From assembly GCA_016748015.1 (NCBI GenBank), contig JAAOMT010000710.1, positions 496,001 through 560,000 of the forward strand: a stretch of DNA of 64,000 nt, in the 5' to 3' direction. Below, piece after piece: positions 12,489 to 64,000 of the stretch. Source of the DNA: Geosiphon pyriformis uo1. Its lineage: Eukaryota > Fungi > Glomeromycota. The translations under genes were made by a program, and so were the position numbers. Positions within the stretch are counted from its first letter, which is position 1, and each line of letters begins with the position of its first letter. The notes below the pieces were generated by a model. That model ran no database searches. It had not been told where the DNA came from and saw nothing but the letters and a program-made list of their open reading frames with translations.

Positions 12489-12794
12489 TGTTTTTATTAT
12501 TAAAAATCATTTAAGTTGTAATATTTTGTTTTGATTACAATTATAAAAATTATAAAAAAAAAAACTATAAATTTTTTTAATAATATGTTGTATTTTTTTT
12601 ATTTATAATATTATTATTAAATATTAAAATATTAAAAAATACAAATTAAATTAAAAAAACTTCTTTCTCTCCTTCATCCAAAATTCCCAAAAAAGAGTCA
12701 AGAATTTTTTTGAAAGAAGTTTTTTACTATTCAGTACAATAAATCAAAACCGTTTTTCGATTACGAGGCCACTGTTGGCTCTGTTATTGCTGTT

Positions 12795-19272: not shown

Positions 19273-20599
19273 TGTAGTCCTGACTGGCCCGAGTGGCTGG
19301 TCACGTGTAGAAAGTGCATGATTCGCACCTAGTTTAGATCATTTGTATGATGTATAGCACTAGGTCGCGTTTGGATCTCACTTATTAAAATATAAAAAAA
19401 AAAAAAAAAATTAAATTAAACTTAACAAATTTCTAAGCTTGTATAATAAAAAATAATTGTATTTAAAATATTAAAATATTATAAGTGTTTTATTATAAGC
19501 ATTAAATTTTTTTATAATAAACAATTTTTAAAAAATTAAAAAGCTTCTTTTAAATTAGATATTTCCAAATTTAATTGTTTTTTTAAGAATTATAAAATAC
19601 TAAATTAATAAAAATTATTAATTAATAGATATTTTTGTTAATTTTATTTAACTTGATAGATTGTACTCTGGTAAAAATCTTGCTATAGTATTTGTAAAGT
19701 ATTATAAAAAACTTAATATTTTTATTAAAATATATTAATATTAAATTTTTTATTATATTTTTATTTACTTTTAATTTTTTTAATTTTTATATATATTATA
19801 AATAATATCTTAAATAACACTTTTTTTTGGCTATTATGTGTTATTTTTTTTTATAGCTATAATAAAACAAAGAATTAATTTTATTAATAAAAGTATAAAC
19901 TTGATTATTTATAATTATAAACATTAATAAATATAAATTTATTTAAAAATTTTATGGTTTTAAATAATTTAAATAATTTTTTTATTATTAAAAACTTACA
20001 TATATTATTTATAAAAAAATAATAATAGCAAAAATAGAAAATGTTAGTATTTTAAAAATTTGCTTTATTAAATATTCTGATAATAATAAAAATAACTTTT
20101 TTTTTAATTAAAAATTTTTATATATATTTTTTTTTAATTAATAGTTGAAGTTATTTGCATAATAATATTTATTTGCCCAAAACTCGAATTCTTAAAACTT
20201 ATAATTATAGTATCTATATGACTAGTATTATTTTTTACAGATCAAAAAAATTATTAATAATAAAACAAAGCTTTAAAATAATTAAATGTTTAATACTTAT
20301 TAATAATAAACCGAAATTTTATTTTTATTTATTATAATTTATAATTCTTTTATAAATTAAAATTATTTTTTTATTGGCCAAAAATCTAATAAAATTTTAT
20401 ATAACTAATAATAAGTCAAGTTAAGTTATAGATTATTAAACTTAATTCAATTTTTTAAAAATAAAAATTTTTTAAATTAAATCTAAGCCAGATTAAGACT
20501 TGACTTAATTCGATTTATTAAAAATTTTATTCTAAATAAAATTATATATCATTTATTTTTGTATGACTTAAAAATATTTATACAAGTACAAATAAAAAA

Positions 20600-21060
20600 T
20601 AAGATGATTTTAATAATATTTTTTTTAAATACTAATAGAATTTTAGATTATTTGTTTAATTATAAGTTTTTAGATTTACAAGTTTTAGGTTAATTTTTTA
20701 AACATCTATTAAATAATTTTTTGGTTAAGATTGTTAAGATTTTTTGTGATTATAATATTTTTTTTTAATAATAATTTGGTTTTTGTATATTATTTTTCTA
20801 ATAATATTTCAGTATTTTTTGTTTTAAAAGAATTGATTTTTTTTAATATTTTTTATTTATTTAAAATATTTTACATTGCTTTTGTTAAACAACTTTATAT
20901 TAAAAAAGAACTTGTTTTTGATTAAAAAAGTTTTTATTATTAAAAAAAATTGGATTCATGAAGTTTAATTTTTTATTGATTTTTTTATTAGTGATTTATT
21001 TAAATAGTAATGTCTTTTAATATATTGTTATATCTTTGACTAATAATTTTTATATAATAT
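20600..21060 (+). mobile_element. Left half of an old LINE relic interrupted by the 21061 copy
   Basis: Remnants GATTTACAAGTTTTAGGT (DLQVLG) and TTGGATTCATGA (LDPR); continues collinearly at 27820. Confidence 0.65.
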
Positions 21061-27000: not shown

Positions 27001-27820
27001 GCACTCTGATTCTCACTTGGCTGCTGGTTTTACTAGTGTGTGTATGGCTGATTGTTGGACATACTTTATGAAGGCTCTCCATCATTGGCTTCTAGTTGCT
27101 GTTCGCAAGCATTTGTATAATAGGAGTTACTCCAATGTAGTATGTTTGTACTGTGGTGATGTTGAGGTCTCAGACCATATCTTTTCTTGTCCTTATAATG
27201 CTGCTGATCATGCTCAGTTGTTAGACACTTATGCTTTAGCTTGGGAGGCTCTCTCTGGTTTGTTTCAATCCTCTTCATGTGTTTCACAGTTATTGACTTC
27301 TTGTATCTCCAAGATTGGAGTTGGCATTGCTCTGTGTAAAGACTTTGTTTTTAATAATTGGTATCATGAGTCTGTTTTGGTTTTTAAAGATTTTAAGATT
27401 GGAACTAAAAAGGTTGTGGACTTTGTGCATGACTTTTGCCTTATATTTCAGGATAATATCTGGTTGGTCCGCACCAAATACCAGGCCTTTATGGAGAAAT
27501 ATGGTCTGATCTCTCATGACAGCTTCATTCCAGCATTAATTTCTGGTTTACCTATGGCATTCTCAGCTAGTGTTGTGAGATTGCTGGATATGGCTGAAGC
27601 TTTTGGAGTTGGTTTCGGGTTTCGTAAGTTTTGTTTATTTTTCTCAAGTGTTGGGGATTTGGTCTCTGTACATATAGGTGTATAGTATTGTCTTGGCTAG
27701 TCTGAGTAGCTGGTCACATGTAGAAAGTGCATGATTTGCTTCTAGTTTAGATTATTGGTATAATGTATAACACTAGGTTGTGTTTAGATCTCACTCATTA
27801 ATTAATAATAATAATAATAA
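21061..27820 (+). mobile_element. Second full-length LINE copy, more decayed, with an (AAT)n tail
   Basis: Same 5' end and domain order. ORF1 about 21201-22997, ORF2 22997-27685, with many stops consistent with mutated TGG/CAG/CGA codons. 3' UTR about 27686-27800. Confidence 0.93.
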
Positions 27821-30307: not shown

Positions 30308-34706
<4,399 letters not shown>

Positions 34707-35230
34707 TTTTGTAAAATTAAAGTCACTATTTGATGAAAAATTAGGCGAGTGCTCAAAATTCAAAGAGTTTAAAGACTTCGGATTCCTTGATGGGAGCGAT
34801 AGATGATATGACGTATTATGATATTATTTTTTATATTAAGTCACATTTATAAAAAAAAAATTAATTAATTATTAATCAAGAAAATAAATAAATAAATTAG
34901 AATTATTTAAAATTTTTGATATATAAAATATTATTAATATGATAAGAATAATTTGTTATTTACAAAAAAAGATTGAGAAAGATTTTATTTTGTAAAATTT
35001 TCACAAAAATAAGTTATTAAATTAATATGATTGTAATAAAATAAAATAATTTGTAAAAAATTTATAAAAAATTTTACAAGATAAAATTATGTTATTTTGT
35101 TTTTTTTAAAACGTTGAAAATTGTTGTTTTTATCAATTAATCTGTTTTTTAATATTAAATATTAAAATTTTGAAAATATGAATAATTAATTTAATAACAT
35201 TTTTTTTTGCAAAAGATTCAATTTGAAAAT

Positions 35231-44352: not shown

Positions 44353-45979
44353 CTAAATTCTTACTCCTTCTTCATATAACTTGTTCCAAAAGAATTCTTC
44401 CAATTCATCAGCACATTTTACATAAATCGTATTGGGAGAATTGTAAGCACGACAATTTTCAAAAATGCGTTGAACATCTGTGTAAAACTCAGCAATAGTT
44501 GGATATTTGTCATTTTCCATTTTCTCCTTTACAGTTCTAAGATCAATCGGATTGTTGATGATATGATAATAATCGGGAACAATATCAGCATTGACCGGTT
44601 CCTGGAAAGGCCATGCGTATCGATGACCTTTAAGTGCACCCAGTACATTCTCCATGATAGCATAATGAGGTAAATGTTTGGTTTTTTTCGCTTGATCCTC
44701 CATTTCAGCAGTCCATCGGGATTCTAAAATCCCAGGAACCTCAGTGGGTTGAACTTTTTCGACGCCATCCTGGAAGCATCGTAGGCCAGGATAGATTGTG
44801 GCATTTTCATACCTACTTTTTAATTTTGACTTAATCGCTTCATGCTGTTGTTTTAACATCTTTTTCACATGTACATATTTAATTCTCGGAAGCATGGAAC
44901 ACTAATAAAAAATAAATTTTAAAGATAATAAAGGACAATATATAATGAAATAAGTAACGAACGGGTAAAAATCTAACCTTCATCAGCGTCCCTCCCGTAT
45001 AATCTTTTATATAACCGACCCACATTGAAGGGTCCAAATCAATCTCAGTCGTGAATCCATTCTTTTTGAAAAATCCAACAGCAAGGTCATCAGCATAGGT
45101 CATAAAATGTTCAACATCGGTAGTTGCCCTGATATAATCCTTAAAATAATTCATCAAACGAGATCCATGACCTCGTACTTGTTCTGTGGCGTCAATAGCA
45201 CAAAAAACAATTTCAGCAAATTTTTGTTGATGAAATGGTCGATATGTAATTCCTCCCACAATATTTGGTATCTTATTGCCGACCTGGGTGGGCCTAATAA
45301 GAACCACACTATGATGATTCATATCATATGTCAATCGTGCGATATAATGCTTGGGCATATTGGGCAATTGAGTGGCAAAGACTTTTTTGAGATTCGTAAG
45401 TAAGATCAAGTTCTGACGGGAGCCATCGTTGGTGATACATCGGAATTCGAGGTCCGAAGGTAGACCTTCAGGATACTCAAGTTTGCCATCATCTTCATCA
45501 TTCTCCTCCTTCACGTCCATCTTTCTTTTCTTACTATCATTTTCCTCCTCCTCTTCGGATTCTGATCGTTTGCGACGCTTTCCGAAATTTGCCATATCAA
45601 TCATTTCAGCTCTCATCCTCTTGACTTGATCATCCTCATACATAAAATCCAAAAGTTTATCCTTTTCATGAAGATATTGATCTATCTTCATTGCGACAGC
45701 TAATCGTCGACTGAAATCCTCATCCTGAGCCCCTCCATGATAACTGAGCCGATGTCCACAAATACAAGAGTCTGCCCGACCGCTGTTATTGGCGGTATTG
45801 GGTCGCCAACCTAAGCAATTACAGATAATAGTATCGCTTGGGTCAGTTGTCAGCTTTTGGGAACAAGGTACATGTCGTCCAACTTTCACGAGTCTTTCAT
45901 GAAGGGTGAGAGACTCAAGAGGTTTATCAGCAGATGGATAGGGGAAGGCAGGCTGAGGCGTTGGAAATTTTAACCGCAT
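44353..45979 (-). CDS. GCN5: GCN5-family histone acetyltransferase (PCAF-N-like Cys/His module, GNAT, bromodomain); exons 45979-44978, 44901-44353
   Basis: [30 protein letters not shown] (catalytic Glu), QVRGHG, TYAD; bromodomain [22 protein letters not shown]; one phase-0 intron. Confidence 0.92.
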
Positions 45980-47499
45980 TATAGTAAATATAAATTAGGT
46001 TGAATTGCTTTGATGACTGTAGTGAAAAGAAAATTATTTTTTCAAATAAAATGTCCATGACGCCAGGTCACACAAGAAAATAGACAGTATAGTTTGTAAG
46101 ACATCTATATTCTGAATGACGATCTGTCAATGACATTAAACTTCGTCATTTTTCAATACTAGGGAAGTCTTTACTCAATATAACCCAGTTTTTTTATTTT
46201 TCATAATAATATAATGTAATTTTTATTTCTCTATTTTATTTCTCTAAATAATATATAAAATATAAATATAAATTTTATTCACGCCAAACCTACTCTAAAA
46301 CTAAAATACAGCATTATTAAAAAAACATAATACAAACTATTTTTTATGTTTTAAAATAAAATATAGTTTGGTACAAAAAGTTTAATATACCAAAATAATT
46401 CTTTAAAGTATTAATTAAGTTTTATTAACATATTTATAATAAATTTTATTCATTCTAAAAGTTTTAAACCTAATTTTTTTGTTTTTTATTATGTTATACA
46501 AGCAAATTGCAACAGTTTCTAAAATTAAACTTGTAAAATTTCAATATTTATTAAATAACAACAATAAAAAAATTGTGAAAATTAAAGTTAAACTAAATAA
46601 TATAAACATAAATAAAATTTAAAAATAAATTAATATATCTGTTAAAAAACAAACAACATGCAAAATTGCAATTTATTTTAAATCTATTTAATAAAAAATT
46701 GTGTTATTAATAAGCTTAAAATTATTATTATTTTTTATTGTTTATTAAAGTATAATTTAAATACTATTTATATAATATTTGGTGTTTTTATATAATATAA
46801 GTTTTTAAAGTTTTTATAATATTTGAAAACTTTTATTTGTTTAAATATTGTGTTTTATTTGTAAAAAAATTTTTATAAAAACAGAAATATTAAAGTTTTT
46901 TATTAATTAATGTAACTACAAAATATTATAATTTGTTTATAATTATATTTAATTTAACTTGTTATTTAATTATAATTAATATAATTTGGTATTTGCTTTT
47001 TACTATTCTGATAAGTTAAAAATTTATTATAAAATTAATTTTTACAAAATGCTTTTATTTTTTACCAAATTAATATAATATTAAATTATATTATTATAAG
47101 AATTAAATTATTTGTTATAATATTAAATTAATTTGTCGTAAAAATCAAATTATTTTTATGATTTTTTTTTGGCATTTTCAGATAATTTTTAAATTATTTT
47201 TAAATAAAAAAATAACAAAAAATAAAAAAATTTAGTATTTTATTAATTATTATAATTAAAAATAATTGTTTAAGTTATTAAAATATAATTGTATTTAACA
47301 TAAAAAAAAATAAATTGTAAAAATACAATTAAATATAATAAAAAAATTAGATTTATAAATAATTAAAATAAAAGCAATTTAATTAATTTAATTATTAGTT
47401 TTTATTTTTAAATAATAAATATATTTGGCTTTTTAATTATAATCTAAATTATTTTAAAATATTTTTTCTAAAATAAAACCATTTATATATATGCATATT

Positions 47500-48259
47500 T
47501 TTTTTTTATTGCTTAACAAATGAGGTCCAAATACTACCTAATACAATACATTATACAAATGATCTAAACTAGACACGAATTATGCTTTTACTACACATGA
47601 CCAGCCACTCAAACTGATCAAGACACCACTATACAGTTATGTAAACTGAAACATCAATGCCAATACCAGAAAAGAACGAACATAACCTACAGAAACCAAA
47701 GTGAACACCAAAAGTGTCAGCAATTCTAAGCAACCTAATAACACCAGCAGACAGCTCTAATAACAAACCAGAAATCGAAGCCAGCATCAAACTATCAGAT
47801 GGAATCAATCCTTTTTTTTTCATGAGGGCTCAATATCTAGTGTGGACTAATTATATGCCATTCTTAAAGCTGAGACTTAGAGCATGCACAAATTCCACAA
47901 TTCTCCGACCTGTGAGTTTGAGATCATGAAAGACAGACACAGCTTCTCGGAACCAATTGTCAAAAACAAAACCTTTAAAAAGGGCTGTGGACACAGAGAC
48001 ATCAAAAGCACAAGACAACAGAAACTGAAACACACAGGAAAAGGAATGAGAAAGACCAGAAATTAGCTCTCAGGAAGCTACATGGGTTTTCAATAATTGA
48101 CAGTAAGTAGAAAGGTCAATTATACAAGAAAAAATATGATTAGAAAATTTAACATCACTACAGAACAAACATAATACAATAGAATAATGTCTAAAGTAAA
48201 GTCACTTCTATATAGCAACAGGCAATTGATAATGCAAGGTCTTTATAAAATATGTATAC
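47500..48259 (-). mobile_element. 3' fragment of a LINE (zinc finger, ORF2 end, 3' UTR, A-tail), interrupted by the LTR nest
   Basis: TYFIKTLHYQLPVA, KGFVFDNWF, GVHFGFC..SVYITV*; 3' UTR homologous to 19273-19385. Confidence 0.88.
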
Positions 48260-48267
48260 TATTATGG

Positions 48268-49331
48268 TGTTATAGATAAACTTGGTGGGTATGGGAAATG
48301 GTAATGTTTAGTGCTCTCAATTATTGATGAATGTGTCTTCTATGTAATTCTGTTGGCTTAGTCTTGATTATCAGTCTCTAAAGGTCTATTCCTGAATGTG
48401 AATTTTACCTGTTGAGTTCTTTGGTTATAAGACACAGAGTTTGTCTTTCGTCAATTGTAATGTTTTTCGTAAATGTGAACTTTTTTCTTCGAGCTAATGA
48501 GCACAGTTGTTAGGGTCTGGCGTTGTCTTTTCACCCTTCTGATAAGCTAACAAGATAATGTTAATATCCAAAACTTAGGGGGAGCTTCCCTCTTTTACCA
48601 GGTTATCACGAAGTCTATTTTCAGACAGTCGATTTTACTATGTTGCTGCTCCACAAAAAATTAACACAGAAAAAGAAAGAAAAAGAAAAAGAAAAGAAAA
48701 GAAAAGAGAGAAAAGATAAATTAGTATCGTCAATTGCTGTAATCAAGAGCAATTGGTCCAAATCATTAATAGATTCGAGGCAGTTATGCTAAGAGCATCT
48801 GTTTTAGAACGGAGGTACAAGACAAGAGTTAATTCACATAAATTTCACGAAATTCGAGAACATGAATTTACGATTTTGATTTCTTTTAATAATTGATTTA
48901 TTTCAAGAAATGAACTAGGGAAGATAATAAAGGATGAAGGGGTATGGATATTTTAATTTCTGGTCTAGAGATTCATATTTATTTTTTCTTCTCTGCTTTT
49001 TCTCACTTCTACAACTACTTGCTTTTATACATTCTTTTGGTTTTACAGAATTGCTTTCAATTGTCTCGCTATTGCTAGCTATTGCTTTGTTGTTTCTGTT
49101 TATTGCTTTGTTTTTCTATGTTATCACTAGTTATTCTATGTTATAATACATTATCTAACGTTATTACATGTTATTCTGTGTTATCCTGTATTATAATACA
49201 TTATCTTACATTATTGTGTGCTATTCTGTGTTATCCTGCATTATAACACGTTATCCAACATTATAACGCATTATCACGTTTTTGGTCACGTTTCTTTATA
49301 ACTTTGGATCAGTTTTTCTACTCAGGTAACA
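48268..49331 (-). repeat. 3' LTR of element 1 (1064 bp)
   Basis: Direct repeat of 57375-58463 with TGTTA...TAACA termini. Confidence 0.95.
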
Positions 49332-49333
49332 TT

Positions 49334-49347
49334 ATCCCTCTCTTTTT
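49334..49347 (-). other. Polypurine tract of element 1
   Basis: AAAAAGAGAGGGA immediately before the 3' LTR on the minus strand. Confidence 0.85.
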
Positions 49348-50140
49348 AAAATTGAGCTCCTACGAAACCATATGTATTTGTTATTGTGGCTTCGTTTGTG
49401 TAATGTTCGATTGTTGCCTTGAGTATTGCCTTTTGTAGGTCTTCGAACTGTTGATTGGTTATTTGTCTTATGCTGTTAACCATTATGGTTTTCATAAATC
49501 CATTCAGTAGTACATTTGGGCAATGTTGGAAGACAGCATATAATCGGTATGCTGCTTTGTAATGTAGAGTCAAGTTGTTTTTCCCTACAAATTTTTTTAC
49601 TTGTTGTATTGCTTCTTTGTTGAATGTTTTCTGGCTGAGATCTTCGTATGGTGTTTTCAAGTCAAGCTGTTCTCCAATTTTGTAGAACCAATAAGCTAGA
49701 GGAAGTCTTTCTTTTCATTCCTAGGGATTGTCAGGTGTCCACTCCCCTGTTTTGGGGAGTTTGGTTCCACAAGCTAAAGCTTGTTTTATTTCTTTAAGCT
49801 TGGGGACCAAGTATCTTCTTTTGTAATCTTTTTCTCATTCTTTGCCTCCTTCTTTTCCACCTTCCACCCAAAGGCAATTTTTCTTCTCACATTGCCTTTC
49901 GGGTGGTGGGTAAGGAAGAGAATGTTTAGTTCTAATTGAACTTTTGTCCTTTCCTTTCCTGCTCTTATCTTTGTACCATATCTCTTTTTTATCAGTTGTT
50001 ATTTCTGTTTGAGATGTCAATTTTTGAATTGTTTCAAATAATTGTTTAAATAATTTTAAAATTTGATCTGAAAGGTCTATGTTGAAATTTCTATCGTTTC
50101 TTGCTGCTTTTTGGATGCTATATATATTTGAATTCCCCAA
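49346..50140 (-). pseudogene. ORF3 of element 1, unknown function, internal stops
   Basis: ORFs 49835-50140 and 49346-49660 are in one frame and are homologous to 59347-60057. Confidence 0.8.
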
Positions 50141-50160
50141 TTTAATTTGCTGCCTGTTGT

Positions 50161-51528
50161 CTATATTTCAATGATAATAATTGGTTCCAGATCTCATGGT
50201 ATATCTTCTGGTCTGATTAATGAAATTTGTGTTCCTAGTTGAGGTACTGATGACAATGATTTCTGTTTTACATGATAAATTTTTAACCAATTTCCATGTG
50301 CTACTTTCTTTAAAATTCTGTCTTTCAATTGTAACTTGTAAGCTCCATTTCCTAACACTTCGTGTATGTGGAATGGACCGTCCCACTTTGGGTCAAACTT
50401 TCCACTCCACTGTTTCTCAGCTTTTGTACGATGTAACAGTACTTGGTCTCCAATCTTGAATTCCATTGGTTGTTCTGGCAGGTGTTTATCATGTCTTTCT
50501 TTTTGTTGTTCTTAAGCGTAACTAATATTGTCAGCTGCTGTTCTTTGATTGTTTTCCAACATTTCCATTAGCTAGTACGTTCTTTGGTGTAAGATAGCCT
50601 CAAAATTCTCTTCATTGATTGTTTTTGTTGGGTATGATAGTATCATTTGTTCAATCGGTAACATAGCTTTTTTTCTATAGACTAGTTTGAACGGTGTGAA
50701 CTGAGTCATATTTTGTTTTAATGTTCGGTATGCAAAGAGTACAGAAGATATGAATAAGTCCCATTCTTGTCTGTTTTTATGACTTATTTTTGCTAGTGCT
50801 TCACATAGTGTTCTGTTAAACTGTTCTACCAGTCCATTTGTTTGTGGGTGGTATGGTAACGATAAGGGTCTCTTTATTCCAAACCGTTGGCTTAGTTCAG
50901 TCAGCATATTATTAACAAAGTGTGTTCCCTGATCAGATAATAATTTTTTCGGACATCCATGTCAGCAAATTAGGTCTTGATGTACAAATTTGGTGACTGT
51001 TTTGGTGTCGGCCACTTGGATTGCTCTGGCTTCTGGCCATTTTGTAAGATAGTTTATAGCTACAGCAATATAATGATTTCCTTGAGATGTAATTGAAAGA
51101 GGTCTAACCAAATCGATCCCAATTCTATCAAATAGATTTCCAACTGGAATGGGTCAAAGTGGTTCTGTTGATCTTGCTCCTCCTCTTCGCTGGCATGCAT
51201 CACAATTGAGCACGTATTTGAAAATGTCTTTATGCATAGTTGGCCAATAGTATAAGTTTAGTGTTCTTTCGAGGGTAGCGTCTTTGTTAAAGTGTTCTGC
51301 AGTCAGATCTGAGTGCACGCTATATAGTATAGTTTCTCTTTCACTGTCCATGATTAGTTGTTGTGGGTTGGGGTGGTTTCAGTATTCTCGTCAATATAGT
51401 TGGTTGTCTTGAATAAAATAATTTCGGACTTGTTTTCATATGGTACTCTGTTCCTGTTGAGATAATATCTCCTTGAAACATAGTGTCGATAGGTACTGAT
51501 GTAGTTGTTAATAAGTGAGTGTGTCCAT
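50161..51528 (-). pseudogene. Integrase of element 1, encoded as a stand-alone ORF
   Basis: Own ATG (MDTLTY) at 51528. HHCC (H..H..CDAC), GIDLV, DQG, NGLVEQFNRTL, WDGPF; ends LEPIIIIEI*. Confidence 0.88.
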
Positions 51529-51538
51529 GGGTCTGGGA

Positions 51539-54500
51539 TTAGGTTTGTAGCATCTTCGACAAACTGTTAACATTGGTGTTCTTGGATCTTTTCTTGTAAT
51601 AGACTTTGAGTGGGAATTGTTGCAGATAAGTACTCTATCTCGCATATTTTCCTTCTAGTTGTGGATTGTTGAGTAACCAAATAAGTCCTTTGTGGTCGGT
51701 ATATAGATCAAATGGTTGACTGAGGTAATGTTTCCAAGTCTGTATGGCCCAATAAATAGCAAGACATTCCAGATCTGTTGTGCTGTAATTTTTTTTTGCT
51801 GGGCTAGTGCTGCAACTAGTATAGGCAACTGGGTGTTCTCTATTGTCTGGTCCTATCTGTGATAAGACTGCTCCTAGAGCATTTTTCAAGACATCCGTAG
51901 CAACAATGAACCGTTTAGTGAAATCTGGATAAATCAGGATTGGAGATGTGATCAATCGCTGCTTGAGATAGTCAAATGCTTTCTGTTGATCTTCCTTCCA
52001 CAAGTACAGTATGTATTTGGACAACAATTGATGGAGTGGTTTTGCGATGTTCGACAAACCTTTAACAAATTGATGATAATATTCTGCTAATCCTAGAAAT
52101 CCTCATAATTCTCTGAAGTTGATTAGGGCTGGAAAATCCTTGACTTTTTGTACTTTATCTGGATCGGGTTTAACTCCATCTTTGCCGATTACATGTCCTA
52201 GGAATTTTAACTCAGTTTTTCCAAAGAAGCACTTCTCGAGATTGAGTTTCAATCTGGCATTATGAAGGCATTCGAAGACTTGTTGCAGGTGGAACAGATG
52301 GTCTTCGAATGTTTCGGAGAACACGTTTGTGTTGTCTAAGTAGACTACTACTGATTTCCAAAGAATTCCTTTGTATACTACATCCATCAGGTGTTGAAAC
52401 GTGGCAGGAGCATTACAAAGTCCAAAAGGCATTATGTTAAACTCGAAGTTTCCGTCTTGAGTGGTAAACACTGTTTTTCTTTTGTCTTTGGAGTTCATTT
52501 CAACTTGCTAGTAACCACTTGCTAAATCTACTGATGAGAACCATTTCTTTTTCCCTAGATTGTTCAGAATTTCCTGGATGAGGGGAGTGGGATAACTATC
52601 TCCTCGCATGATGCTATTTAGTTTTCGATAATTGATGCAGAATCGCACTTTTCCATTTTTCTTGGTAACCAAGACTACTGGTGAGGACCAAGGGCTTAAT
52701 GATTCTTTGATTAGACCATTATTAAGCATCCGTTGCACTTTTTGCTTAATTAGATTATTACCAGATGGGGGTATGCAGTAAGCTCATTGCTTAATTGGTC
52801 AAGCGTCTCCTGTATTAATCTGATGCTTCACAATGTCAATGTGTTTGAACTCATTTTCGCTGGCAAAGACATCGGCATATTGATTCAGAAAGACTTTGAG
52901 TTGCATTTGTTGCAGGGTACTTAAATTTCCTAAATTCAATTTATTGATCTCTTCTGGTGTGAACAAGTAACTTTCTTTTAGCAAATTCCATACTTGTGAG
53001 GTAATGTCACAGAATAAGAATAATTGTGCGAAATCTGGAATGGACTGGGGTTTTTCAGGATTCTGACTATCTGTGAATATAGAACTGATGAGGGTCTCTT
53101 CGGGGATTTTAATGACATCTTCTGTCAGGTTGTGGATGGGGATTTTGAAGTGTTTATGGGCTTTGGCTGGTAGGTATAAATTAGCAACATTGGCTAGGGA
53201 ACAGATTTCGGGACTGGCTTCAAATAATAGGGCTTGATTTTGGATCTTTTGATTCACTTTGAGGATGTATTATCAGTATAGAGGAATAGAGATAACAGTG
53301 TCGGTGTGGATAAATTCTACCTGATCATTGTTTTCCTTCATGAAATTAACTGGTATGTTTTCTCTTCCACTTGATCCAAACCCATTGATTCCTCAGGCAG
53401 TGAGGCCTGACTCTTCTCAGATTGTTACCGGAGTTAATTAAGATATTTTGACTAGGGGTAGGAAGATAGCTTGGGCAATCTTTTCTTGTAATTCTATTTT
53501 ATAAGATCTGTCCGAATTGTTCTGTAGCATCACAATAATGTTTCTTGTGTAACTGGCATTGATGATTCCTCTTTTTATGTTGATTCCTTTCTTGGCTAGA
53601 CTAGATCGAAAGGCAACTTGTACCATTGTACTAACAGAAATTTCTAACGCTATCTTAAGATCTATTTTTACGAGAGAATGTGGGACTATAATGATGGGTG
53701 ATTGTCCAGGATATCATAGGTCAAAACTGGCATCAGTGTCATGCACTCTTTCGGGGCAGATTCCTTCTTCGTTGTCACTGTACTATTTTAGCTCTAGTTC
53801 TTTGGATAGGTCAGAATACATGAGATACTGTTCTGTTTTGGTATCCTCAGTTGAATCTTGAAACGACATGTCCTTGGTGATCAATACCTCTTCTTCAGGT
53901 TCAGGTAGTTCAGTGATTGGAAACAGTATTCTTGGAGGCGAATTGAACATGAGATCACATTTATCGCAGTACTGGAAGTGACAAGGGATCAAACAGTGAT
54001 CGCATAGTTTGGTATTCAAATCGGCCAACCTTTGCTCCTGTTCCTCGTGAATTGAGGCCAATTCCTGATATTGGTTCTGAAATGCATCTGGGTCATCTGT
54101 GAAGAAATCATCCTCGGGGTAGTCGGATCTAGTATATTTGGGCGTCCAAGGGTTGTCTTTAATTTTTCATATTTTTTCAGACATGGCGCCTTCGGCCTTG
54201 GCACTTGCCATTCTCCAGATTTCGTGGTCATTGTGTGAATAACCGTCTAGTCTGTTGAGTGTTCGTTTCCAAGCGTCCTCAATGGGGGTTCCCTTTTGTA
54301 CCCATTTGTTAATTAATATGGTGTATTGACAAGTCTCGTCACATGTTTCTCCTCTGCCAGGCACATTATTCCAGAGTCTTTCATTTGGCAGGATTTTGCC
54401 ACATGCGAGACACAGCATGTGGTCCCACTTGCCTTGTCATTTTGGTTGTCCAAATCTTTCCAGTAAACAAGGCTTGCAATAGTATTTGGTGGCGGTGGGC

Positions 54501-57312
54501 TATTCTTTGTTGTCCCTGATACATGCGCTCATAGTAGATAGTTTTTTTCCACAATCGACACATATTAGTCTTGGGGGTTGGTAAAATAAGTTTCTTTGAT
54601 CCAAGATTATGTATCTTAGTAATGACGATTGGAGTTCTTCTTCGGCTCTGTTTTTTTCTTTTTCTTCCCAGATTGATGGTGGGGGTAGTTCAGTTCGATA
54701 ATCATCTGCCCATAAAACCTGATAGGTCTCGATGGTTGGTGGCATTAATGTGTCTTCGAATTCAATAAGGGGTTCCTCAGTACATTGGTTTTTAAAGTGT
54801 TCGCACATAGCTGGGACTCGGGCATGCTGTCCGTTGAATGTGAGTTGAAGTTTTTGGGTGTTCCAGTCGAGAGTAGCGTTGGCTTTTGACAACCAGTCAT
54901 TTTCTACTAGAGCTTAATATTGAGTAGCTTCCATAATGAGTACTTTGGTAGGGATTTGGATTCCATTAATCTCGAAGGGGAAGTTGTCAATTTCTCCTAT
55001 CGAGGTTTTTGTGTTCCCATCCGCTGTAATGATCTGAGCAGTAGCAGCATGGTCTACTCGGTGATTTAGTTGGTCTATGAGCTGCTTCGTAATTATGCTA
55101 CCAGCTGATTCACTATTCAGGATTAATTTAATGTCTATTCCTCCAACTCTGGCATCAGTGTATAGAGCTGTTATTGGTTTATCCTAATTGATGGCTGCTC
55201 CACTAAAAAGGCTATGTGTGTTCAACTTATCGATGTCAAAAAGAAATATGGTGGCTAGGGTGGTGTCTTCAGTAATAGTGGCTGGTGGGATATTGCTTTT
55301 TGTTTGCTTGGAAGGTTGGAAGATTGTTCTATATCCTTCCCTTCCACAGGTGTAGATTTATCAAAACCCTGGTCTTCCATAAGACTGAGATAGGAAGCTT
55401 GATTCGGGTATTCAGTTGGTGTTGGTCGAGATTGAGCAGGACTACAAGGGATTGGTCGAAATGGTCCACTGTTGGTTTGCACCTGATTGTTGTTGGAATT
55501 CCTCCATCCCTAATTATAGTCTATAGCTCGAGGTCTGGATGGGCTGTAAGAAAAAGTTTGATAGTGAGGGATTGCTTGTGTCATTAGTGGTGGTTGATAA
55601 TAATTCTGGGACAGTGGTTGAGTGTATGGGACTTGTTGTGTGTATAGGGGCAGTTGATTCTAAGGTATGGAATATTAGGGTACTATGTTTTGCTGATATC
55701 TGGGTTGCTGGTATGGGTTTCCTTGATTTTGGTCCATGATCTTCCTTCTGCAATCACGGGTGATGTGTCTAGGTTTCTGGCAGTAGTAGCAGTTGTGGGG
55801 ATCAGATCTCCAAGGTTGTTGCTGTTGCTGTGGGTATTTGCTGTTGTTGTTATTTTCTCTCCGTTGGGGTGGTTGGTAAGTTTCTGTAGTTCTGGCTAAG
55901 AATCCCTCAATTTTCTGAGTTAGTTTCTCACTCAATTAAGTTATCTTTGTGTCAATGTCAGAGGTTTCATTAATGGCTAAATTAATGGCTTGGATATGGT
56001 TTGCTTCTTGTTTTGCAGATTCAAAATCATGAGTGAAAGTGACGGCGTTTTATAAACTGGTCGGATGGCGGAGTCTTATGGATCTTAGAATACTATTCCG
56101 CAATCCTTTAATGAATTGATTAAGAACTTGTGCCATGGTGTAGTAGTCCCTTTTGATAGCTAATATTTGATGCAGGATTTGATTGAATTGTCCGAAATAA
56201 GTAGTTATGGCTTTGTGATCTTTTTGTTTAATTATGTTGAATTGATTCTGCAATCAGATTAACATATTGGGGTCACAGAAGTATTTCAGAAATGCGAGTT
56301 TAAACTTGGTAAAGGAGGTAGGCTTCTCTGCCAGGCTTTGGTATTACGAATTGGTGGTTTTAGTCAGAAAGAATGGCAGTGCCTGAACTGTGCAATCGTT
56401 GTTCCAACCATTAGTGGTAATTGCTTTCTCAGCGTCCGCGATCCAAGAATATGCATTATCTTTTTCACCAGAGAATTTTTCCAATTTAATGATATTCTGG
56501 TAAGCCATGATCTGGTTAATGGGTGGAGTGTTACTGGTTATGTTTAAAGAGATTGGTGTCCACATATTCGAGTATTTTCTGGGTGCTAATGCTGGTTGCT
56601 TTTCTTTGTTACTTGAACCAATAGGTTGTAAGATAGCTGTTTCTTCCATTAGGGGAGATGCTAATTCTGCTAAGTTTTGTGCTGATGACTGTTCCTAAGT
56701 TGACGGGTTTTTTTCTGTTTAACTAGCTGCTAGGTTAAGATTTCCAAACAGCGATCCATATTTTCCTAGTGATTTGGTCCAACTGTGTTGATTCCAAGGG
56801 TGTGGATTTCCAGGAGTTCGTGATGTTTCCAACTGGGTTTCCAGGGGTGGGTTGAATACAATTCTACTTTGGAGTGTCTGATGGTATGATGGAGTTGTTG
56901 GGGAGAGGACCCTTGGTTTTTTGTTGACCGTGGACTTGGCTTGGACAGTTACGGGGTTGTTGGATTCATTTTTGTATTCTTCAGAGTCGGATTTCACTGG
57001 TTGTTGTACTTGGGAGAATTATTGTGCCACATAATATTTAATGTCTATATTGATTATGCACAGAGTTTCAGCAATTGCTCAGGTAGTCATGGCTGTTGAG
57101 TATCCTAGTAAGCTTTGATGGATTTGTTCTCCAAGTCTTCCTGTATCAGTTGCATGGCCTAACAAGCAGTCAATTTTTGTATTGATATAGTTACAAAAAT
57201 CACTTTCTGCATAAGCAGTTCCTGCTGGTATTCCTAGGTCTTTTCAAAAGTATTGAAATAGTGCTTTTCCATATGTGGAGTGGTCCTTTCCTATTGTTCC
57301 AATAGTTGCCAC
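51539..57312 (-). pseudogene. Gag-protease-Cys-rich-dUTPase-RT-RNase H polyprotein of element 1
   Basis: KLEKFSGE (gag), CYYCQKPRHITRDC knuckle, LILNSES (decayed DSG), dUTPase motifs, SPWSSPVVLV, DLASGY, MPFGLCNAPATFQ, YLDN (decayed YLDD), ATDVL..LGAVLSQ, YTDH; stop at 51539-51541. Confidence 0.88.
53366..53770 (-). pseudogene. dUTPase domain inside the element 1 polyprotein
   Basis: Motif I DASFDL, motif II RSSLA, motif III GIINASYTRNI (decayed GIIDAGYTGNI), motif IV IAQAI, motif V (R)GINGFGSSG. Confidence 0.9.
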
Positions 57313-57356
57313 TTTTATGTATTTTTGGGGGTGCTCTGTTTCTGTGGATTTATAAT

Positions 57357-57372
57357 CTCACAGGGAGCACCA
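57357..57372 (-). other. Primer-binding site TGGTGCTCCCTGTGAG
   Basis: Two nt after the 5' LTR; complementary to a tRNA 3' end CTCACAGGGAGCACCA (Ile-UAU or elongator Met type, unresolved). Confidence 0.88.
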
Positions 57373-57374
57373 AA

Positions 57375-58463
57375 TGTTACAGATAAACTTGGTGGGTATG
57401 AGAAATGGTAATGTTTGGTGCTCTCAATTATTGATGAATGCATCTTTCACGTAATTTTGTTGGCTTAGTCTTGATTATCAGTCTTTGAAGGTTTATTCCT
57501 GGATGTGAATTTTACCCATTGAGTTCTTTGGTTATAAGACACAGAGTTTGTCTTTCATCGATTGCAATGTTTTTCATAAATGTGAGCTTTCTTTTTCAAG
57601 CTAACGAGTGCAGTCATTAAGGTCTGGCATTGTCTTTTCGCCCTTTTGGTAAGCTAACAAGATAATGTTAATATCCAAAACTTAGAGGGAGCTTCCCTCT
57701 TTTACCAGGCTATCACAAAGTTTATTCCCAGACAGTCGATTTTACTATGTTGCCACTCCACAAAAAATAAGACAGAAAAAGAAAAAAAAAGAAAAAAAAA
57801 GAAAAGAGAGAAAAGATAAATTAGTATCTTCAATTGCTGTGATCAAGAGTGATTGATCCAAATCGTTAATAGGTTCGAGGTGGTTATACTAAGAGCATCT
57901 GTTCTAGAATGGAGGTACGAGACAAGGGTTATTTCACGTAAATTTCATGAAGTTCAAGAACATGAATTTGCGATTCTGATTTCTTTTAATAATTGATTTA
58001 TTTCAGGAGATGAACTAGAGAAGATAATAAAGGATGAAGGGGTATGGATATTTTAATTTCTGGTTTAGAGGTTCATATTTATTTTTTCTTCTCTGTCTTT
58101 TCTCACTTCTATAACTATTTGCTTTTATACATTCTTTTGGTTTTACAGAATTGCTTTCAATTATCTTGCTATTGCTAGCTATTGCTTTGTTGTTTCTGTT
58201 TATTGCTTCGTTTTTTTACGTTATCACTAGTTATTCTATGTTATAACATGTTATTTGACATTATTACATGTTATTCTGTGTTATCCTGCGTTATAACACA
58301 TTATCCTACGTTATTGCATACTATTCTGTGTTATCCTGCATTATAACACGTTATTCAACGTTATAATGTGTTATCCAATGTTATTGTGCGTTATTCTGTG
58401 TTATGTCACATTTTTGGTCACGTTTTTTCATAACTTTGGATCAGTTTTTCTACTCGGGTAACA
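57375..58463 (-). repeat. 5' LTR of element 1 (1089 bp)
   Basis: Direct repeat of 48268-49331; followed by the PBS on the minus strand. Confidence 0.95.
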
Positions 58464-59346
58464 ATGGGATGGTTTTCTTGTTATATTTAATTGCCAATAT
58501 CCTGTTTTAATTGCAATCAGTCTTTCGTGAGTTCCTTAATTCTATTTGTGTGATAATGTTACTGTTATACTAAAGGCTTTCTTTTTAATGTCATGATGTA
58601 AGTTATTCTTCAATTTCTGATTGTTGTGTGTATTTATGTATTCTTTCTCAGAGACTGAACTGAAATCTACCTGCTGTCTGGGGTTTTCTCTGAGGCTATT
58701 CTTGCAATTGCCTGATGTGTTTCTCTAATCTAGAAACACAGAATGTTAATGGCCTTTAGCGCTTTTTCTAATTCTTACAATAAAGCTTTTATCAATTAGT
58801 AACAACATAAATAATCTTGATCAAGAATTATTCTTCCAAGGGATTCAGTTGATGAATAATAGTTTCATTCAATAAATAATACAAGTAAGTTTCTTAATAC
58901 TTTGGGTTATGATAATTCAGTTTTAAATATTCTTTTTCATTTCTTTTTGATTTAAAGGTTTCTTGGAATATTTAATTTGAAAGTATGATTTAAAGTGAAA
59001 TTTGTTGGATAAAATTAGATCTATTGCTTGATAAATTATGATTTTTATTACTTGATTTTTTTTTCTCAATATTAAAGCTACTGTATATATATATGTTTGT
59101 AGTTCTATAAGAAAACACAATATAATACTTTCTTTTTGATATTTCAATTTGGTGTTTGCTGCTATCACCAGTTGGTGTTGGCTGCTATTGTGAACTGGTG
59201 CTTGCCATTATTGCAAGATGGTGTTTGCTATTATGTTAATTATTACCTTTCTAAGATTATTACTGCGCTATATTATGATTGAATAGTTTATATTATTTTT
59301 ATGATTCTTTTGCTAAATTCTTAAATCATAACATTATTCCCTCCTT

Positions 59347-60057
59347 TCAAGATTGAGCTCCATCGAAATCAAAGTTAATTTCTTCATTAAATTCTAAATT
59401 ACTATAGTGGTTTAATACTGTGTTATTAATTTGTTGTTGTAATTCTTGAAATTGTGAGTTGGTAAGTCGTCCAATACTGTTGGTTGTTATTATGTTCATG
59501 GTTGGATCCAACAATAGTTTGTGACAGTTTTCAAATGCTTTGAAAATTCTGTAAACTGTTTTTGAATAGAATGTAGTATTGGTTTTTCCAATGAAAGGTT
59601 CTAATAGTTGGATAGTTGTTTTGTCAAACACTCTAGTTGAATTTTTTGAGTATAATGTTTGTATGTTTAAGTGTTTTTCTAGTTGATAATAACAGTAGTT
59701 AATGGGAAATTTTGTTTTCAAGTTGCTAAATGTGTCTGGTGTTAATTCACTTATTTCTATTTCTTCTATTATTAATGTATTGTCCAATGCTATCTCTAAT
59801 TTTTCAATCACTTTGCTGATAAATTTGTTGTTATGTTTGGTAATATTATATGATTCAAAATTATGTTCTTTTTTTGTTTTTGGATTTTCTATTGTTCTTT
59901 TTATGTATGTTATTTTGGAGCTATTAACTGTGATTTCTGGATCGGATTTTAATTGTTGTAAGCTTTCAACTAATTGTTGAGTTATATTGTTGATGTTTTC
60001 TGAAATAAGTATTATTGTTTTAATTTTGACTGCTATTTTGGAATCTTTTGCATGCAT
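59347..60057 (-). CDS. ORF3 of element 2, 236 aa, open frame, unknown function
   Basis: ATG in an AAAA context 42 nt after the integrase stop; homologous to element 1 ORF3; stop overlaps the PPT. Confidence 0.75.
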   Translation of the reverse strand: MHAKDSKIAVKIKTIILISENINNITQQLVESLQQLKSDPEITVNSSKITYIKRTIENPKTKKEHNFESYNITKHNNKFISKVIEKLEIALDNTLIIEEIEISELTPDTFSNLKTKFPINYCYYQLEKHLNIQTLYSKNSTRVFDKTTIQLLEPFIGKTNTTFYSKTVYRIFKAFENCHKLLLDPTMNIITTNSIGRLTNSQFQELQQQINNTVLNHYSNLEFNEEINFDFDGAQS

Positions 60058-60099
60058 TTTTATGGTTGTTAAATCATTTTTGCTGTGATCTAAGATTAA

Positions 60100-61478
60100 T
60101 TATCTTTTTGAATAATGTTCAATTAAAACTATTGGTTCTAAATTTTGTGGAATTTGTTCTGGTAGAATTAAAGGTAATTGTGTTTCAATTCTGAGTGTCT
60201 TTGTTGTTATTACTGGTTTACTGTAATAGAATTTCAGCCAGTTACCATGTGCTGCTTTTCTTAATATTTTATTATCTAGTTTTAGCTTGTATGCTTTATT
60301 TTCAAGTATTTCATAAATATAAAATAGTCCATCTTACTTGTGATCAAATTTTCCACTCCATTGTTTTTCCATTTTTGTATGATGCAATAATACTTTATCT
60401 CCAATTTTGTAGCTAATTATATTATCTGGTAACTGGTTATTATGTCTCACTTTTTGTTGTTCTTGTGATTGTTCAATATTTTGTGCTGCTTTTCTTCTTT
60501 TTTTTCTAAAGTTTCTATTAATTTGTATGTTCTTTTAAGTAGTGTTTCCTAGAATGTTGCTTTAGTAATAGTGTCACTTGGATAAGTTGGGATAGTAAGT
60601 TCAACTGGTAATGTGGCTTTTCTTCCATAAACTAGTTCAAATGGTGTAAATTATATAGTATCTTGTTTTACTGTTCTATATGCTAATAGTACTGCTGGTA
60701 TGAACAAATCCCATTCTTTTTCATGTTCATTACTAATTTTCACCAGTGATTCACATAATGTGCGATTAAATCTTTCAACTAATCCATTTGTTTATAGGTG
60801 GTATAGTGATGACAGTAGTTGCTTGATTCCAAATTTTTGGCTAAGTTCTTTTAAGGTGCTGTTTACGAAGTGTGTGCCTTGATCTGATAGCAATTCTTGT
60901 AGACATCTATGTCAGCAAATTAAGTTTTCATGTATAAATTGAGCTATGGAAATAGCATCAGCTGTTTTAATAGCTCTAGCTTCTGGCTATTTGGTGAGAT
61001 AGTCCACAGCTACTGCAATATAATGGTTGTTTCTTGTTATTATTGGTAAGGATCCAACTAAATCAATTCCAATTCTGTCAAATGGCTGTCCAATTTTTAT
61101 TGGTCTTAATAATTCCATTGTTTTTGCTCCTCCTCTTTGTTGGCATGGGTCACAATTTTTTATGTATTAGATTATGTCTGAACTCATTTTTGGCCAATAG
61201 TAATGGCTAGTTGCATGTTGGATGGTTGCTGTTTTTCCAAAGTGGCCTGAATGAATATTTGAATGCATGTTAAATAAGATAGTTTCTTTTTCATCCGTGG
61301 TTATAACTCTTAATGGATTATCTGAATTTTGTCAATTCTGGTAATAAAATATGTGATTTTGGATGAAATAGTGTTTTGCTAATTTTTGGAGCTTAATTAG
61401 CTCTTTTACTGGCATTTCTTCATCTATTTGTAGTGTTTCCAAGTATTGGCTGAGGTTTTTATAAAGGTGGTTGTTTAT
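60100..61478 (-). pseudogene. Integrase of element 2, stand-alone ORF (start decayed ATG GAC to ATA AAC)
   Basis: HSNIHSGHFGK, CDPCQ, GIDLVGSL, SDQGTHF, NGLVERFNRTL; ends LEPIVLIEHYSKR*. Confidence 0.85.
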
Positions 61479-61694
61479 TGTTGTTGTGACAGGTGGGTTG
61501 GTAATTTTTATGTATGTTTCATTCTTGATAAACAGTCAGCATTAGCATTTTTGGTACTTTCTTTGTATTTAATAATATAATCGTATGATGTTAACGTTTG
61601 TGACCATCTGGCATATTTTCCTTTTAGCACTTTCTTGTTATTTAACCAGACCAGACCTCTATGATCTGTAGTAATCTCAAAGGGTTGGTACTAT

Positions 61695-63133
61695 TGTTAT
61701 TCATAGAAATATAGAAAATATATTAGTATGATTATTAGCCAATCAGAAGTAGGCATAGTAAATGTGGAATTCCAGGATTCCTCTCAGGAATTGCAGGATT
61801 CCAAGAATTTCAGGATTCCCCGACAAGGAATCGCAGGATTCCTCTCAAAGGGATTGCAGGATTCCAGGAATTTCAGAATTCCTGTCATGAAGAATCAAGG
61901 AATTAAGGAATCTCAAATATGTATATATAGCAGTAGTATTAGAAACAGAAAAGACAAAATTGATACCACAGAATCCTTAGCCTAGAAACAAAATCATCAA
62001 ATAAATAATTATTTTATATCTCAATCCACTCTCCACTATCAACACTTCATGTTGATAGTAATTAATCCTTAACCACGCTGGAACAATAGCTCTTGATTAT
62101 GGCTATTGACAAGATACTAATCTACCAAATGCCTTGGCTTATTTCTTTACATTTCTTTATTTTCGTTATTTTCTTTATTTTCTGTGATTTTGTTATTGTG
62201 CACTAACCAATTGATTAAAAGTGCTGATTATTGACATCAAGGATTGCCTGGTAAAAGACCCCTGCGAGTGGGTAGGACACATACAGAAGATACGAATTAT
62301 TTACTAGAAGATTGCCAGCCACCAAGCCGAGAAAAAAATTGACAGACTTGTGAGTTTGAGAAGCTACAGATAAAACAACTATTGAATCTCTGTCCATTAT
62401 ACAAAGGACTCATTGGAAAAACCTTCAGATCCCAAAACCTTCAGTTTATCATCAATGCAAATAGTTGTTGAGCACCAAGTTATGGATTTGTTATTTGACT
62501 TGAGACCCCAAAAAATCATTGTAACATTTGGTGCTCCCTGTGAGATATAATCCTACAGAGAACCAGCACCAACAAACACCATCCAAAAGTGGCAGAATCA
62601 GAAAATATAGGAGCAAACCATTTAGGATTCGCAAAATTCTTATTTCAATACTATTGTCAATACTTGGGATTAAACCACAATCATATATCCACCAAATCAG
62701 CCTTCAATTTCTACATCAACAAAAAGATTTCTTCTTTGTTAGGAACACCAGTAAATACTGAATCAGCAAGGGAAACTTTCTATAAAGAATTAATTCAAAA
62801 CACCAACCTACCAACAAATCATAATTTCGTATTTATCATCACTAAGATCAACCAAGAAATTGAACATCATACCCAACAAAGATATCCAATTACATACACT
62901 AGTAAAGGCAAAGGAAAACTACAAACACCAGCAGTAACACCTAAAAGAATACAACCATCTACTTAGAAGAAAACAAGAGTTGAATCCCCAACCAATTCAT
63001 CTTATCATTATACACTCAGAAGTGCCATCAACATTTTATTAACAAGCACATCCACATCAAATGTGGCATTAACATTTGGATGATTCTCATTCCAAAGTAA
63101 ACAAAGGAAAACAGAATTATTAAGACCATACGA
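61695..63133 (+). mobile_element. LTR element 3, 5' part: LTR 61695-62526, PBS 62529-62544, gag N-terminus from 62589; inserted in element 2 RNase H
   Basis: TGTTA...TAACA LTR, PBS identical to element 1, and gag N-terminus homologous to element 1. Confidence 0.88.
61766..61882 (+). repeat. Six tandem GGAATTGCAGGATTCC-type units in the LTR U3 region
   Basis: Located between a CCAAT box and TATATATAG; the sister LTR has three units (63205-63258). Confidence 0.85.
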
Positions 63134-64000
63134 TGTTACTCATAGAAATATAGGAAATATATTAGCATAATTATTAGCCAATCAGAAGTAAGCATAGTAA
63201 ATGTGGAATTGCAGGATTCCTTTCAGGAATTGCAGGATTCCAGAAATTCCAGGATTCCTGTCGTGAATAATCGAGAAATTAAGGAATCTCAATTATGTAT
63301 ATATAGCAGTAGTGTTAGAAACAGAAAAGACAGAATCAATACCACAAAATCATTAGCCAAGAAACCAATCATCAAATAAATAATTATTCCATATCTCAAT
63401 TCACTATTCACTATCAACACTTTATGTTGATAGTAATTGATACTTAACCATGCTGGAACAATAGCTCTTGATCATGGCTATTGACAAGATACTAATGTAC
63501 TGAATTGCCTTGGCTTATTTCTTTATTTTCTTTAATTTTATTTTCTTTCTTTTTATTTTTTCTTTCTTTGATTTTTGTTGTTGTATACTAATTGAGAAAA
63601 AAGATTAAGCACTGAGTTATTGATGTCAAGGATAGCCTGATAAAAGACCCAGAAATAAGGGTAGAATTATATATATTAACAGATAGCTTACCAGAAGGGC
63701 ATAACTGCCAGAATAAATCTGGCCACCAAGCTGAGAAAAAAATTGGGCATAATTGTGGCTCCAGAAAAACTACTACCATCACCACTGAATCTCTGTCTAT
63801 TATATAAAGAACTTTACAACAAAACCTTCAGATCAACCAAAATCTTCAGATACCATACCTTCCATACATCATCCACAAAAGTAGCTTTTAAGCACCAAGT
63901 TACAGGTTTGTTATTCAATACAACAACAGAAATAATCATCTGTAACATTTGGTGCTCCCTGTGAGGTATAATTCTACAGAGAACCAGCACCGATAACACC
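63134..64000 (+). mobile_element. LTR element 4 (same family as element 3): 5' LTR 63134-63947, PBS 63950-63965; inserted in element 3 gag and running off the window
   Basis: Homologous to 61695-62526, followed by a PBS and not preceded by a PPT. Confidence 0.88.

Follow-up and report, generated by a model that had tools for sequence, protein, structure and literature searches.

How does a long terminal repeat (LTR) retrotransposon equip its particle with integrase when the integrase is no longer part of Pol? In canonical Ty3/Gypsy elements the integrase is cleaved from the Pol polyprotein, and among LTR retrotransposons and retroviruses its entry into the particle within Gag-Pol is, to our knowledge, a rule with hardly any exception. 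The question is raised by two elements in a 64,000-nucleotide (nt) stretch of DNA from the fungus Geosiphon pyriformis (contig JAAOMT010000710.1, positions 496,001 to 560,000; hereafter the window, with positions counted from its first letter). In both, the frame that ends in RNase H closes with a stop codon and the integrase opens as an open reading frame (ORF) of its own. Comparison with element copies, database proteins and metagenome loci confirmed that this split is a trait of the lineage and not decay.

Two elements with a separate integrase ORF

Both elements lie on the minus strand. Element 1 is a complete LTR element (48268-58463), in which the RNase H frame ends ...SLSKMLQT and closes with TAA at 51539-51541, four codons past the RNase H end motif. 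An ATG-free spacer of 10 nt (51529-51538) separates this stop from ATG GAC at 51528, which opens an integrase ORF of 455 codons with nine decay stops (50161-51528; PF17921, PF00665 and PF24626). In element 2 the RNase H end (...CLSRMKHT, 61508-61694, its upstream part cut by a third LTR family) closes with TAA at 61510-61508, followed by a 29-nt spacer (61479-61507) that contains neither ATG nor an AG dinucleotide. Its integrase ORF (60100-61478) matches PF17921 (E 1.7e-18) and PF00665 (E 6.3e-8), carries stops and a frameshift near 60500, and has a start decayed to ATA (ATA AAC at 61478).

The initial annotation of the window had placed both junctions correctly and had noted that the stop position is shared while the frame offsets differ (+1 in element 1, +2 in element 2); we confirmed this. 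Intact relatives have their stop and their start at equivalent sites as well, which makes chance an insufficient explanation. Its reading of ATA AAC as a decayed ATG GAC holds for the first codon, and the second need not be decay, since Asn is a natural second residue of these integrases (10 of 101, see below). The two elements had also been described as diverged families. Their integrases are indeed 54% identical (172/320), and they are sisters in the integrase tree (support of 99 in the Shimodaira-Hasegawa-like approximate likelihood ratio test, SH-aLRT); this identity and placement point to one inherited split, not two independent cases.

The split is inherited

Copies of element 1 in run X1, which may be the window's own sample, covered its junction only: 2444 contigs aligned to 51200-51900. 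Every indel stayed below 5%, and the 40 differences listed, from a total of 145, all lay outside the stop and the ATG. Three of the five in-frame decay stops of this segment were sense codons in most of the depth.

A search with the integrase gave 878 matches at E 1e-30 or better, in proteins of 250-797 residues. The best 120, which we analysed, are 392-453 residues long and contain integrase domains only. A Met stands exactly at the column of 51528 in 101 of the 120 and after a short extension in two more, and the other 17 begin later; residue 2 of the 101 Met-aligned proteins is Asp in 71, Glu in 20 and Asn in 10. The nearest database proteins (57-86% identity) are G. pyriformis gene models, and Rhizophagus irregularis too has intact integrase ORFs belonging to this group (P0029, P0030, P0055 and P0101). 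A search for longer proteins returned at least 41% identity in five of the 120 matches listed, all of them NCBI gene models from Glomeromycota. Two (P0125 and P0126) omit the RNase H end and the integrase start, and two (P0128 and P0130) have no RT (reverse transcriptase) family listed; the fifth, P0127, speaks against the split, being a fused gene model that retains both ends around a 96-residue linker.

The Pol side agrees. Within the best 120 matches, 71 of the 80 RT-RNase H proteins with at least 47% identity lack an integrase, and six of the nine exceptions are Rhizophagus clarus models that bridge the junction at varying places. The RNase H end motif is recognisable in 78 proteins that lack an integrase; in these, the stop lies at most 10 residues past the motif in 47 and 11-50 residues past it in eight, and 23 have longer tails. 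In some Pol proteins (L004:3496-4441, L015:4800-6705 and the 23 just mentioned) an acidic, Cys/His-containing tail of 60 to more than 400 residues takes the place of the integrase behind RNase H.

Among metagenome loci (80 kept of 558 confirmed), the split is present in all 13 that combine the conserved Met with a visible end of the upstream ORF, whereas the frame is continuous in 23 loci of greater distance (at most 39% identity). The count of 13 leaves aside L037, which is split with its start not placed, loci whose contig ends before the upstream ORF, and seven distant broken loci without the conserved Met (L035, L047, L050, L060, L063, L069 and L077). In L008, L011 and L026 the upstream ORF was taken as Pol by its likeness to the post-RNase H tail of L004, not by RNase H itself. 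Viral contigs contained no relatives except three weak matches of bacterial-type integrases. In-frame stops also interrupt otherwise open gag-pol frames in some of these loci (L005:872, L015:3360, L021:483 and 1587).

The initial annotation had proposed to test whether the stop and the ATG are ancestral, and the copies of element 1, the integrases, the Pol proteins and the metagenome loci show that they are: where a continuous RNase H-integrase frame was looked for, relatives keep the stop and the Met.

Anatomy of the junctions

The 13 metagenome loci and the two window elements gave 15 junctions, with spacers of -8, 10, 29, 30, 62, 63, 74, 77, 82, 89, 110, 163, 190, 365 and 727 nt. Frame offsets of 0, +1 and +2 all occur among them, which excludes a conserved frameshift or readthrough and upholds the earlier argument against a conserved programmed frameshift. 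Stop and start overlap in one junction (L021, of the AUGnnUAA type).

The 12 spacers of 10-190 nt contain one ATG in 979 nt, against a mean of 9.0 in dinucleotide shuffles (P 0.001). ATGs are dense before the stop, at 25-27 per kb in each of three 50-nt bins, with 15 ATGs over 12 junctions in the last 50 nt. The contrast indicates that an AUG-free zone begins at the stop, and that normally no other AUG lies between the Pol stop and that of the integrase. Several points count against this depletion. The omission of L005, L015 and the overlap was chosen after inspection of the data, and with all 14 spacers counted the result is weaker (20 ATGs versus 30.8 in shuffles, P 0.02); the junctions share ancestry and are not independent cases; and the spacers are poor in GTA as well (three). 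The two longest spacers contain seven ATGs (L005, 365 nt) and 12 ATGs (L015, 727 nt), so that plain scanning from the stop cannot work there; their final 82 and 110 nt, respectively, are free of ATG.

Of 21 integrase starts, 17 carry a purine at -3 and 19 carry G at +4, although the latter may reflect the protein. T-rich tracts occur in several spacers, and we saw no promoter motif common to the subfamilies.

A covarying hairpin in one subgroup

A motif of 35 nt that ends 4-16 nt ahead of the integrase AUG is common to eight loci and folds, on the evidence of covariation, into a conserved, purine-rich bulge of 11 nt with a stem below it and a stem-loop above (L004:4459-4505, L007:181-227, L008:581-627, L011:486-532, L017:171-217, L019:4-50, L026:488-534 and L030:15-61). 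Across 13 pairs and eight loci, 96% of the 104 cells are paired, with double-sided changes in seven of the 13 pairs; the covariation score was reached by none of 500 shuffles and slid controls were at most 45% paired, figures that are inflated because the structure was derived from the same eight related sequences. A model of the hairpin run over the 80 loci recovered these eight and one more at the equivalent place (L003:20-64, E 0.032). It found nothing in the remaining split loci or at the window junctions, the best hit in the window having E 0.63. Seven of the hairpin loci fall in one integrase branch (SH-aLRT 96).

Rfam gave no match at E 1 or below for the hairpin in 13 loci, and the exact pattern had no match in viral contigs or prokaryotic genomes. 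A comparison by eye with the hammerhead core led us to reject that identity, because the CUGANGA strand is missing. The hairpin, carried by relatives of the window elements, appears to be a new RNA motif.

How the integrase could be translated

The initial annotation had suggested reinitiation, splicing or subgenomic RNAs, together with a separate packaging route for the integrase. Reinitiation and subgenomic RNA remain, and splicing found no support. We put at about even the chance that ribosomes translate the integrase from the full-length RNA, on which they would remain once Pol is completed and, after short scanning, restart at the following AUG. An AUG-free zone that starts at the Pol stop, one overlap and one 10-nt spacer are best explained by such a restart, and the purine at -3 in most starts fits scanning. 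The break in the Pol polyprotein would have fallen in the variable linker that connects RNase H with integrase, and post-termination 40S subunits would scan 10-190 nt to reach the integrase AUG; some subfamilies may tune the restart by stop/start overlap or by structured RNA just ahead of the AUG, and subfamilies may even differ in their translation routes. The integrase, made on the packaged RNA itself, would then reach the particle bound to this RNA, to Gag or to RT rather than within Gag-Pol. An independent packaging route follows as a logical need; foamy virus Pol, which is made apart from Gag, offers a precedent for separate packaging.

Several observations weigh against restart after Pol. 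Coupled termination-reinitiation normally requires a stop and a start within about 14 nt of each other, according to PMC5972666, and the distance is within 18 nt in only two of 15 junctions. The core TGGGA of a TURBS, a ribosome-binding site upstream of termination, stands before only one of 15 stops. Element 1 itself has C at -3. A stable hairpin in the spacer, as in the one subgroup, would hinder scanning. The depletion of AUGs, finally, is equally expected of a transcript that starts in the spacer.

That last possibility, an internal promoter, situated either in the last part of pol or within the spacer, that yields a subgenomic RNA translated in the ordinary way, is to us the strongest competitor, although clearly less probable than restart. 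The AUG-poor spacers and the purine at -3 would then be those of an ordinary 5′ leader, the 365- and 727-nt spacers with their ATG-free last 82 and 110 nt are better accommodated, and the T-rich tracts are in its favour. With ATGs at full density up to the stop, however, such an RNA would have to start within the 10-nt spacer of element 1 and the overlap of L021, where there is little room, or carry upstream AUGs, and the lack of a promoter motif common across subfamilies also tells against it. Internal ribosome entry at the integrase AUG, independent of Pol translation and aided by structured RNA, draws on the 13-pair hairpin 4-16 nt before the AUG in eight loci and in L003. We regard it as improbable, because the hairpin is limited to one subgroup, occurs at neither window junction nor in other split loci, and is inferred from those same eight related sequences. 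Typical internal entry sites are, moreover, much larger.

An intron that takes out the stop and fuses RNase H with integrase, giving a normal Pol polyprotein from spliced RNA, would explain why seven NCBI models from Rhizophagus clarus and Cetraspora bridge the junction (P0125, P0126, P0462, P0470, P0485, P0499 and P0503). These models, however, join at differing places and delete the RNase H end motif. In 10 junctions (an eleventh, L004, was not scorable) the 90 nt preceding this motif contain no donor-like site, no common acceptor position exists, three of 14 spacers lack any AG, and a splice fusion would not keep a Met at one column; we therefore consider splicing very unlikely. Just as little credence attaches to the view that a continuous pol has decayed at the break, or that a programmed frameshift or readthrough restores pol. 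Both window copies are heavily mutated, with 103 of the 106 substitutions between the LTRs of element 1 being transitions, and the seven distant loci without the conserved Met do show breaks of this kind. Against it stand the stop and Met kept in intact relatives, the occurrence of all three offsets, the in-frame stops in spacers and the absence of any indel at 5% among the copies of element 1.

Returning to restart on the full-length RNA, a more inclusive reading, which we offer tentatively and hold to be rather less probable than restart taken by itself, joins these strands. A large LTR lineage of Glomeromycota type would have exchanged proteolytic release of the integrase for separate translation through several cis-acting solutions (an overlap, an AUG-free spacer, or a compact structured RNA that hands ribosomes to the AUG), with packaging independent of Gag-Pol, and the hairpin would represent a class of eukaryotic elements, for reinitiation or for internal entry, that is so far undescribed.

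Origin of the split

Among 19 fused proteins in which the RNase H end motif was found, the residue equivalent to the integrase Met lies 4-39 residues past the motif in 16; the split therefore sits in a variable linker and leaves both enzymes whole. In a quick RT-RNase H tree of 66 rows, one branch (SH-aLRT 94) holds all 31 split rows together with two fused ORFs and two gene models. The two fused ORFs, P0129 and P0343, nest weakly among the split ones, a point against the main reading. In a careful tree of 28 of the 66 rows the split sequences did not form one clade, and none of 200 bootstrap trees required just one change; the approximately unbiased (AU) test did not reject a single clade (p 0.367). 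One fission would be the simplest reading of these sequences, not a demonstrated one.

The base of a quick integrase tree (136 rows) was unresolved. Capture of the integrase from Ginger or Polinton elements is not favoured. In this tree, which contains no labelled Ginger, Gin or Polinton sequences, the integrases joined to Ulp1 (P0150 and P0170, Ginger1-like by their Pfam domains) do not group with those of the window.

ORF3 and the remaining organisation of the elements

A homologous ORF3 follows the integrase in both window elements and in the eight loci examined (L001, L004, L007-L011 and L015), usually after a spacer and once with an ATGA overlap (L007). The family measures about 150-250 residues and has no Pfam match. 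Because ORF3 is placed separately behind the integrase, the translation problem arises twice per element. The initial annotation had called the elements tricistronic (Gag-to-RNase H, integrase, ORF3); the third, separately initiated ORF is borne out, whereas 'Gag-to-RNase H' is not one open frame in element 1.

Element 1 is flanked by CCAT as a 4-bp target duplication. Its 5′ LTR (57375-58463, TGTT...AACA) and 3′ LTR (48268-49331) align with 951 identical columns, 106 substitutions and 40 gap columns. A primer-binding-site-like sequence follows the 5′ LTR directly (57357-57374) and is identical to the sequence behind both LTRs of the third family; no tRNA genes were found within the window. 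The gag frame (55255-57378) is decayed by stop codons and matches PF03732 (E 3.7e-7) and the Ty3 capsid family PF19259 (E 8e-7). Pol lies in a different frame, at -1 relative to gag with the shift near 55250. The pol frame (51539-55180) covers 1213 codons in a single reading frame, free of frameshifts and interrupted by 16 stops, and encodes protease, a Cys-rich insert, dUTPase, RT and RNase H up to the stop, without integrase (PF00692, PF00078, PF17919 and PF17917); its protease matches score under the curated cut-off. The dUTPase domain (53366-53761; PF00692, E 2.5e-14) lies between protease and RT. Between protease and dUTPase, about 350 codons (53780-54900, minus strand) contain several CxxC pairs and have no Pfam match. 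The decayed ORF3 (49346-50167) has no Pfam family, is 30% identical to that of element 2 (E 1e-28) and weakly matches that of L008 (E 0.005-0.009); a polypurine tract (49332-49346) precedes the 3′ LTR.

In element 2, ORF3 (59347-60099, minus strand) spans 250 codons; beyond it lie a polypurine tract and, at 59331, a TGTT that resembles the start of an LTR. It has no Pfam family, and the Atlas leads were all below 0.9. This copy of ORF3 is stop-free despite the badly decayed integrase of the element. Element 2 is interrupted at 61694 by the third LTR family, which is inserted on the plus strand, in the opposite orientation (61695-62526 and 63134-63947). The insertion consists of two nested LTRs, each followed by the primer-site sequence of element 1 and a gag-like start.

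Elsewhere in the window, two related, decayed elements of non-LTR type lie 8.4 kb apart on the plus strand (12647-19330 and 21053-27760) and share blocks of 72-81% identity. By eye they contain endonuclease-, RT- and RNase H-like frames, and a fragment of the same family lies on the other strand at about 47500-47990. Two intron-bearing genes on the minus strand are presumably host genes, one resembling by eye a Gcn5-type acetyltransferase with a bromodomain (44353-45994) and one a Prp5-type DEAD-box helicase (30700-34820). Among the distant metagenome loci, L072, L075 and L076 have the integrase upstream of RT, an order that we take to be Gmr1-like.

Significance

An abundant and successful lineage that breaks the rule makes two things testable: eukaryotic restart after a long ORF over spacers of tens to hundreds of bases, and packaging of an integrase on its own. 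The natural junction variants and the covarying hairpin are ready inserts for reporters. Annotation is affected as well, because gene predictors invent introns over the junction or label the integrase a stand-alone transposase, which distorts the annotation of mycorrhizal fungi; LTR elements can make up 41% of G. pyriformis DNA (PMC11952901).

Comparison with known systems

The window elements represent a lineage-wide variant of the Ty3/Gypsy (Metaviridae) organisation. They share with it TG...CA LTRs, a 4-bp target duplication, a primer site, a polypurine tract and a Ty3-type capsid (all in element 1), the order protease-RT-RNase H-integrase and a Gypsy-type RT (PF00078), and their RT-RNase H is 42-47% identical to fused Gypsy Pol proteins. 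They are filed as a variant and not as canonical elements because the integrase is not translated within Pol. In this they differ from the fungal elements of PMC3248453 and PMC2864245, as they do in the small, non-envelope-like ORF3 family behind the integrase. The nearest canonical groups are the Athila/Tat-related elements with a YPYY motif, a group in which PMC2836005 names Gypsy-1-I_RO, a Rhizopus element; plant Pol proteins, P0178 for example, are among the neighbours in the quick RT tree, with weak support. P0001 shows no chromodomain family, which in chromoviruses marks the C-terminus of the integrase.

A dUTPase between protease and RT is shared with PosPlaTy3-5 of Postia placenta; elements of that type differ in having one or two ORFs with the integrase in Pol (PMC2864245). 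Among relatives, a dUTPase is present in P0442, P0457, P0467, P0484 and P0493, as in element 1, and a NUDIX domain (PF00293) in the Pol of P0451, P0458, P0463 and P0475. P0493 also has a 162-residue tail behind RNase H that resembles its own dUTPase. Capture of nucleotide-cleaning enzymes seems to have happened more than once.

In the open literature searched we found no paper describing a separate integrase ORF in LTR retrotransposons, and this organisation is apparently undescribed there; a prior mention is possible in the supplementary structure table of PMC2864245, in Repbase or in subscription journals. The accessible parts of PMC3248453, PMC2864245, PMC11952901 and bioRxiv 2021.03.30.436303 do not mention it. 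Ginger1 (PMC2836005) likewise has a stand-alone, Gypsy-like integrase with an N-terminal extension ahead of the zinc finger. It differs in its terminal inverted repeats, its CCGG/CCGT targets, the lack of RT and, mostly, a C-terminal protease, whereas the integrase here lies behind RT-RNase H in an LTR element.

For the junctions themselves, PMC3542737 and PMC5972666 offer two comparisons. In the coupling of caliciviruses, influenza B virus, victoriviruses and hypoviruses the downstream ORF begins near the upstream stop, as in the overlap of L021. Here, by contrast, the downstream ORF follows a spacer in 14 of 15 junctions; only L021 and element 1 (2/15) have the overlap or the distance of about 14 nt that goes with a TURBS, and UGGGA lies 40-90 nt before the stop in one of 15. 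In LINE-1 (ORF2) and SART1 (PMC5972666), too, one long ORF follows another on the RNA of a retrotransposon, after a short spacer or overlap; LINE-1 ORF2 is translated after a 63-nt spacer, and pneumovirus separations reach 29 nt. LINE-1 and SART1 are non-LTR elements whose ORF2 is an RT/endonuclease, whereas the elements here form particles and their downstream cistron encodes the integrase. The coupling of caliciviruses or victoriviruses requires an upstream motif in addition to a stop and a start close together, and the restart proposed here would resemble LINE-1 ORF2 more.

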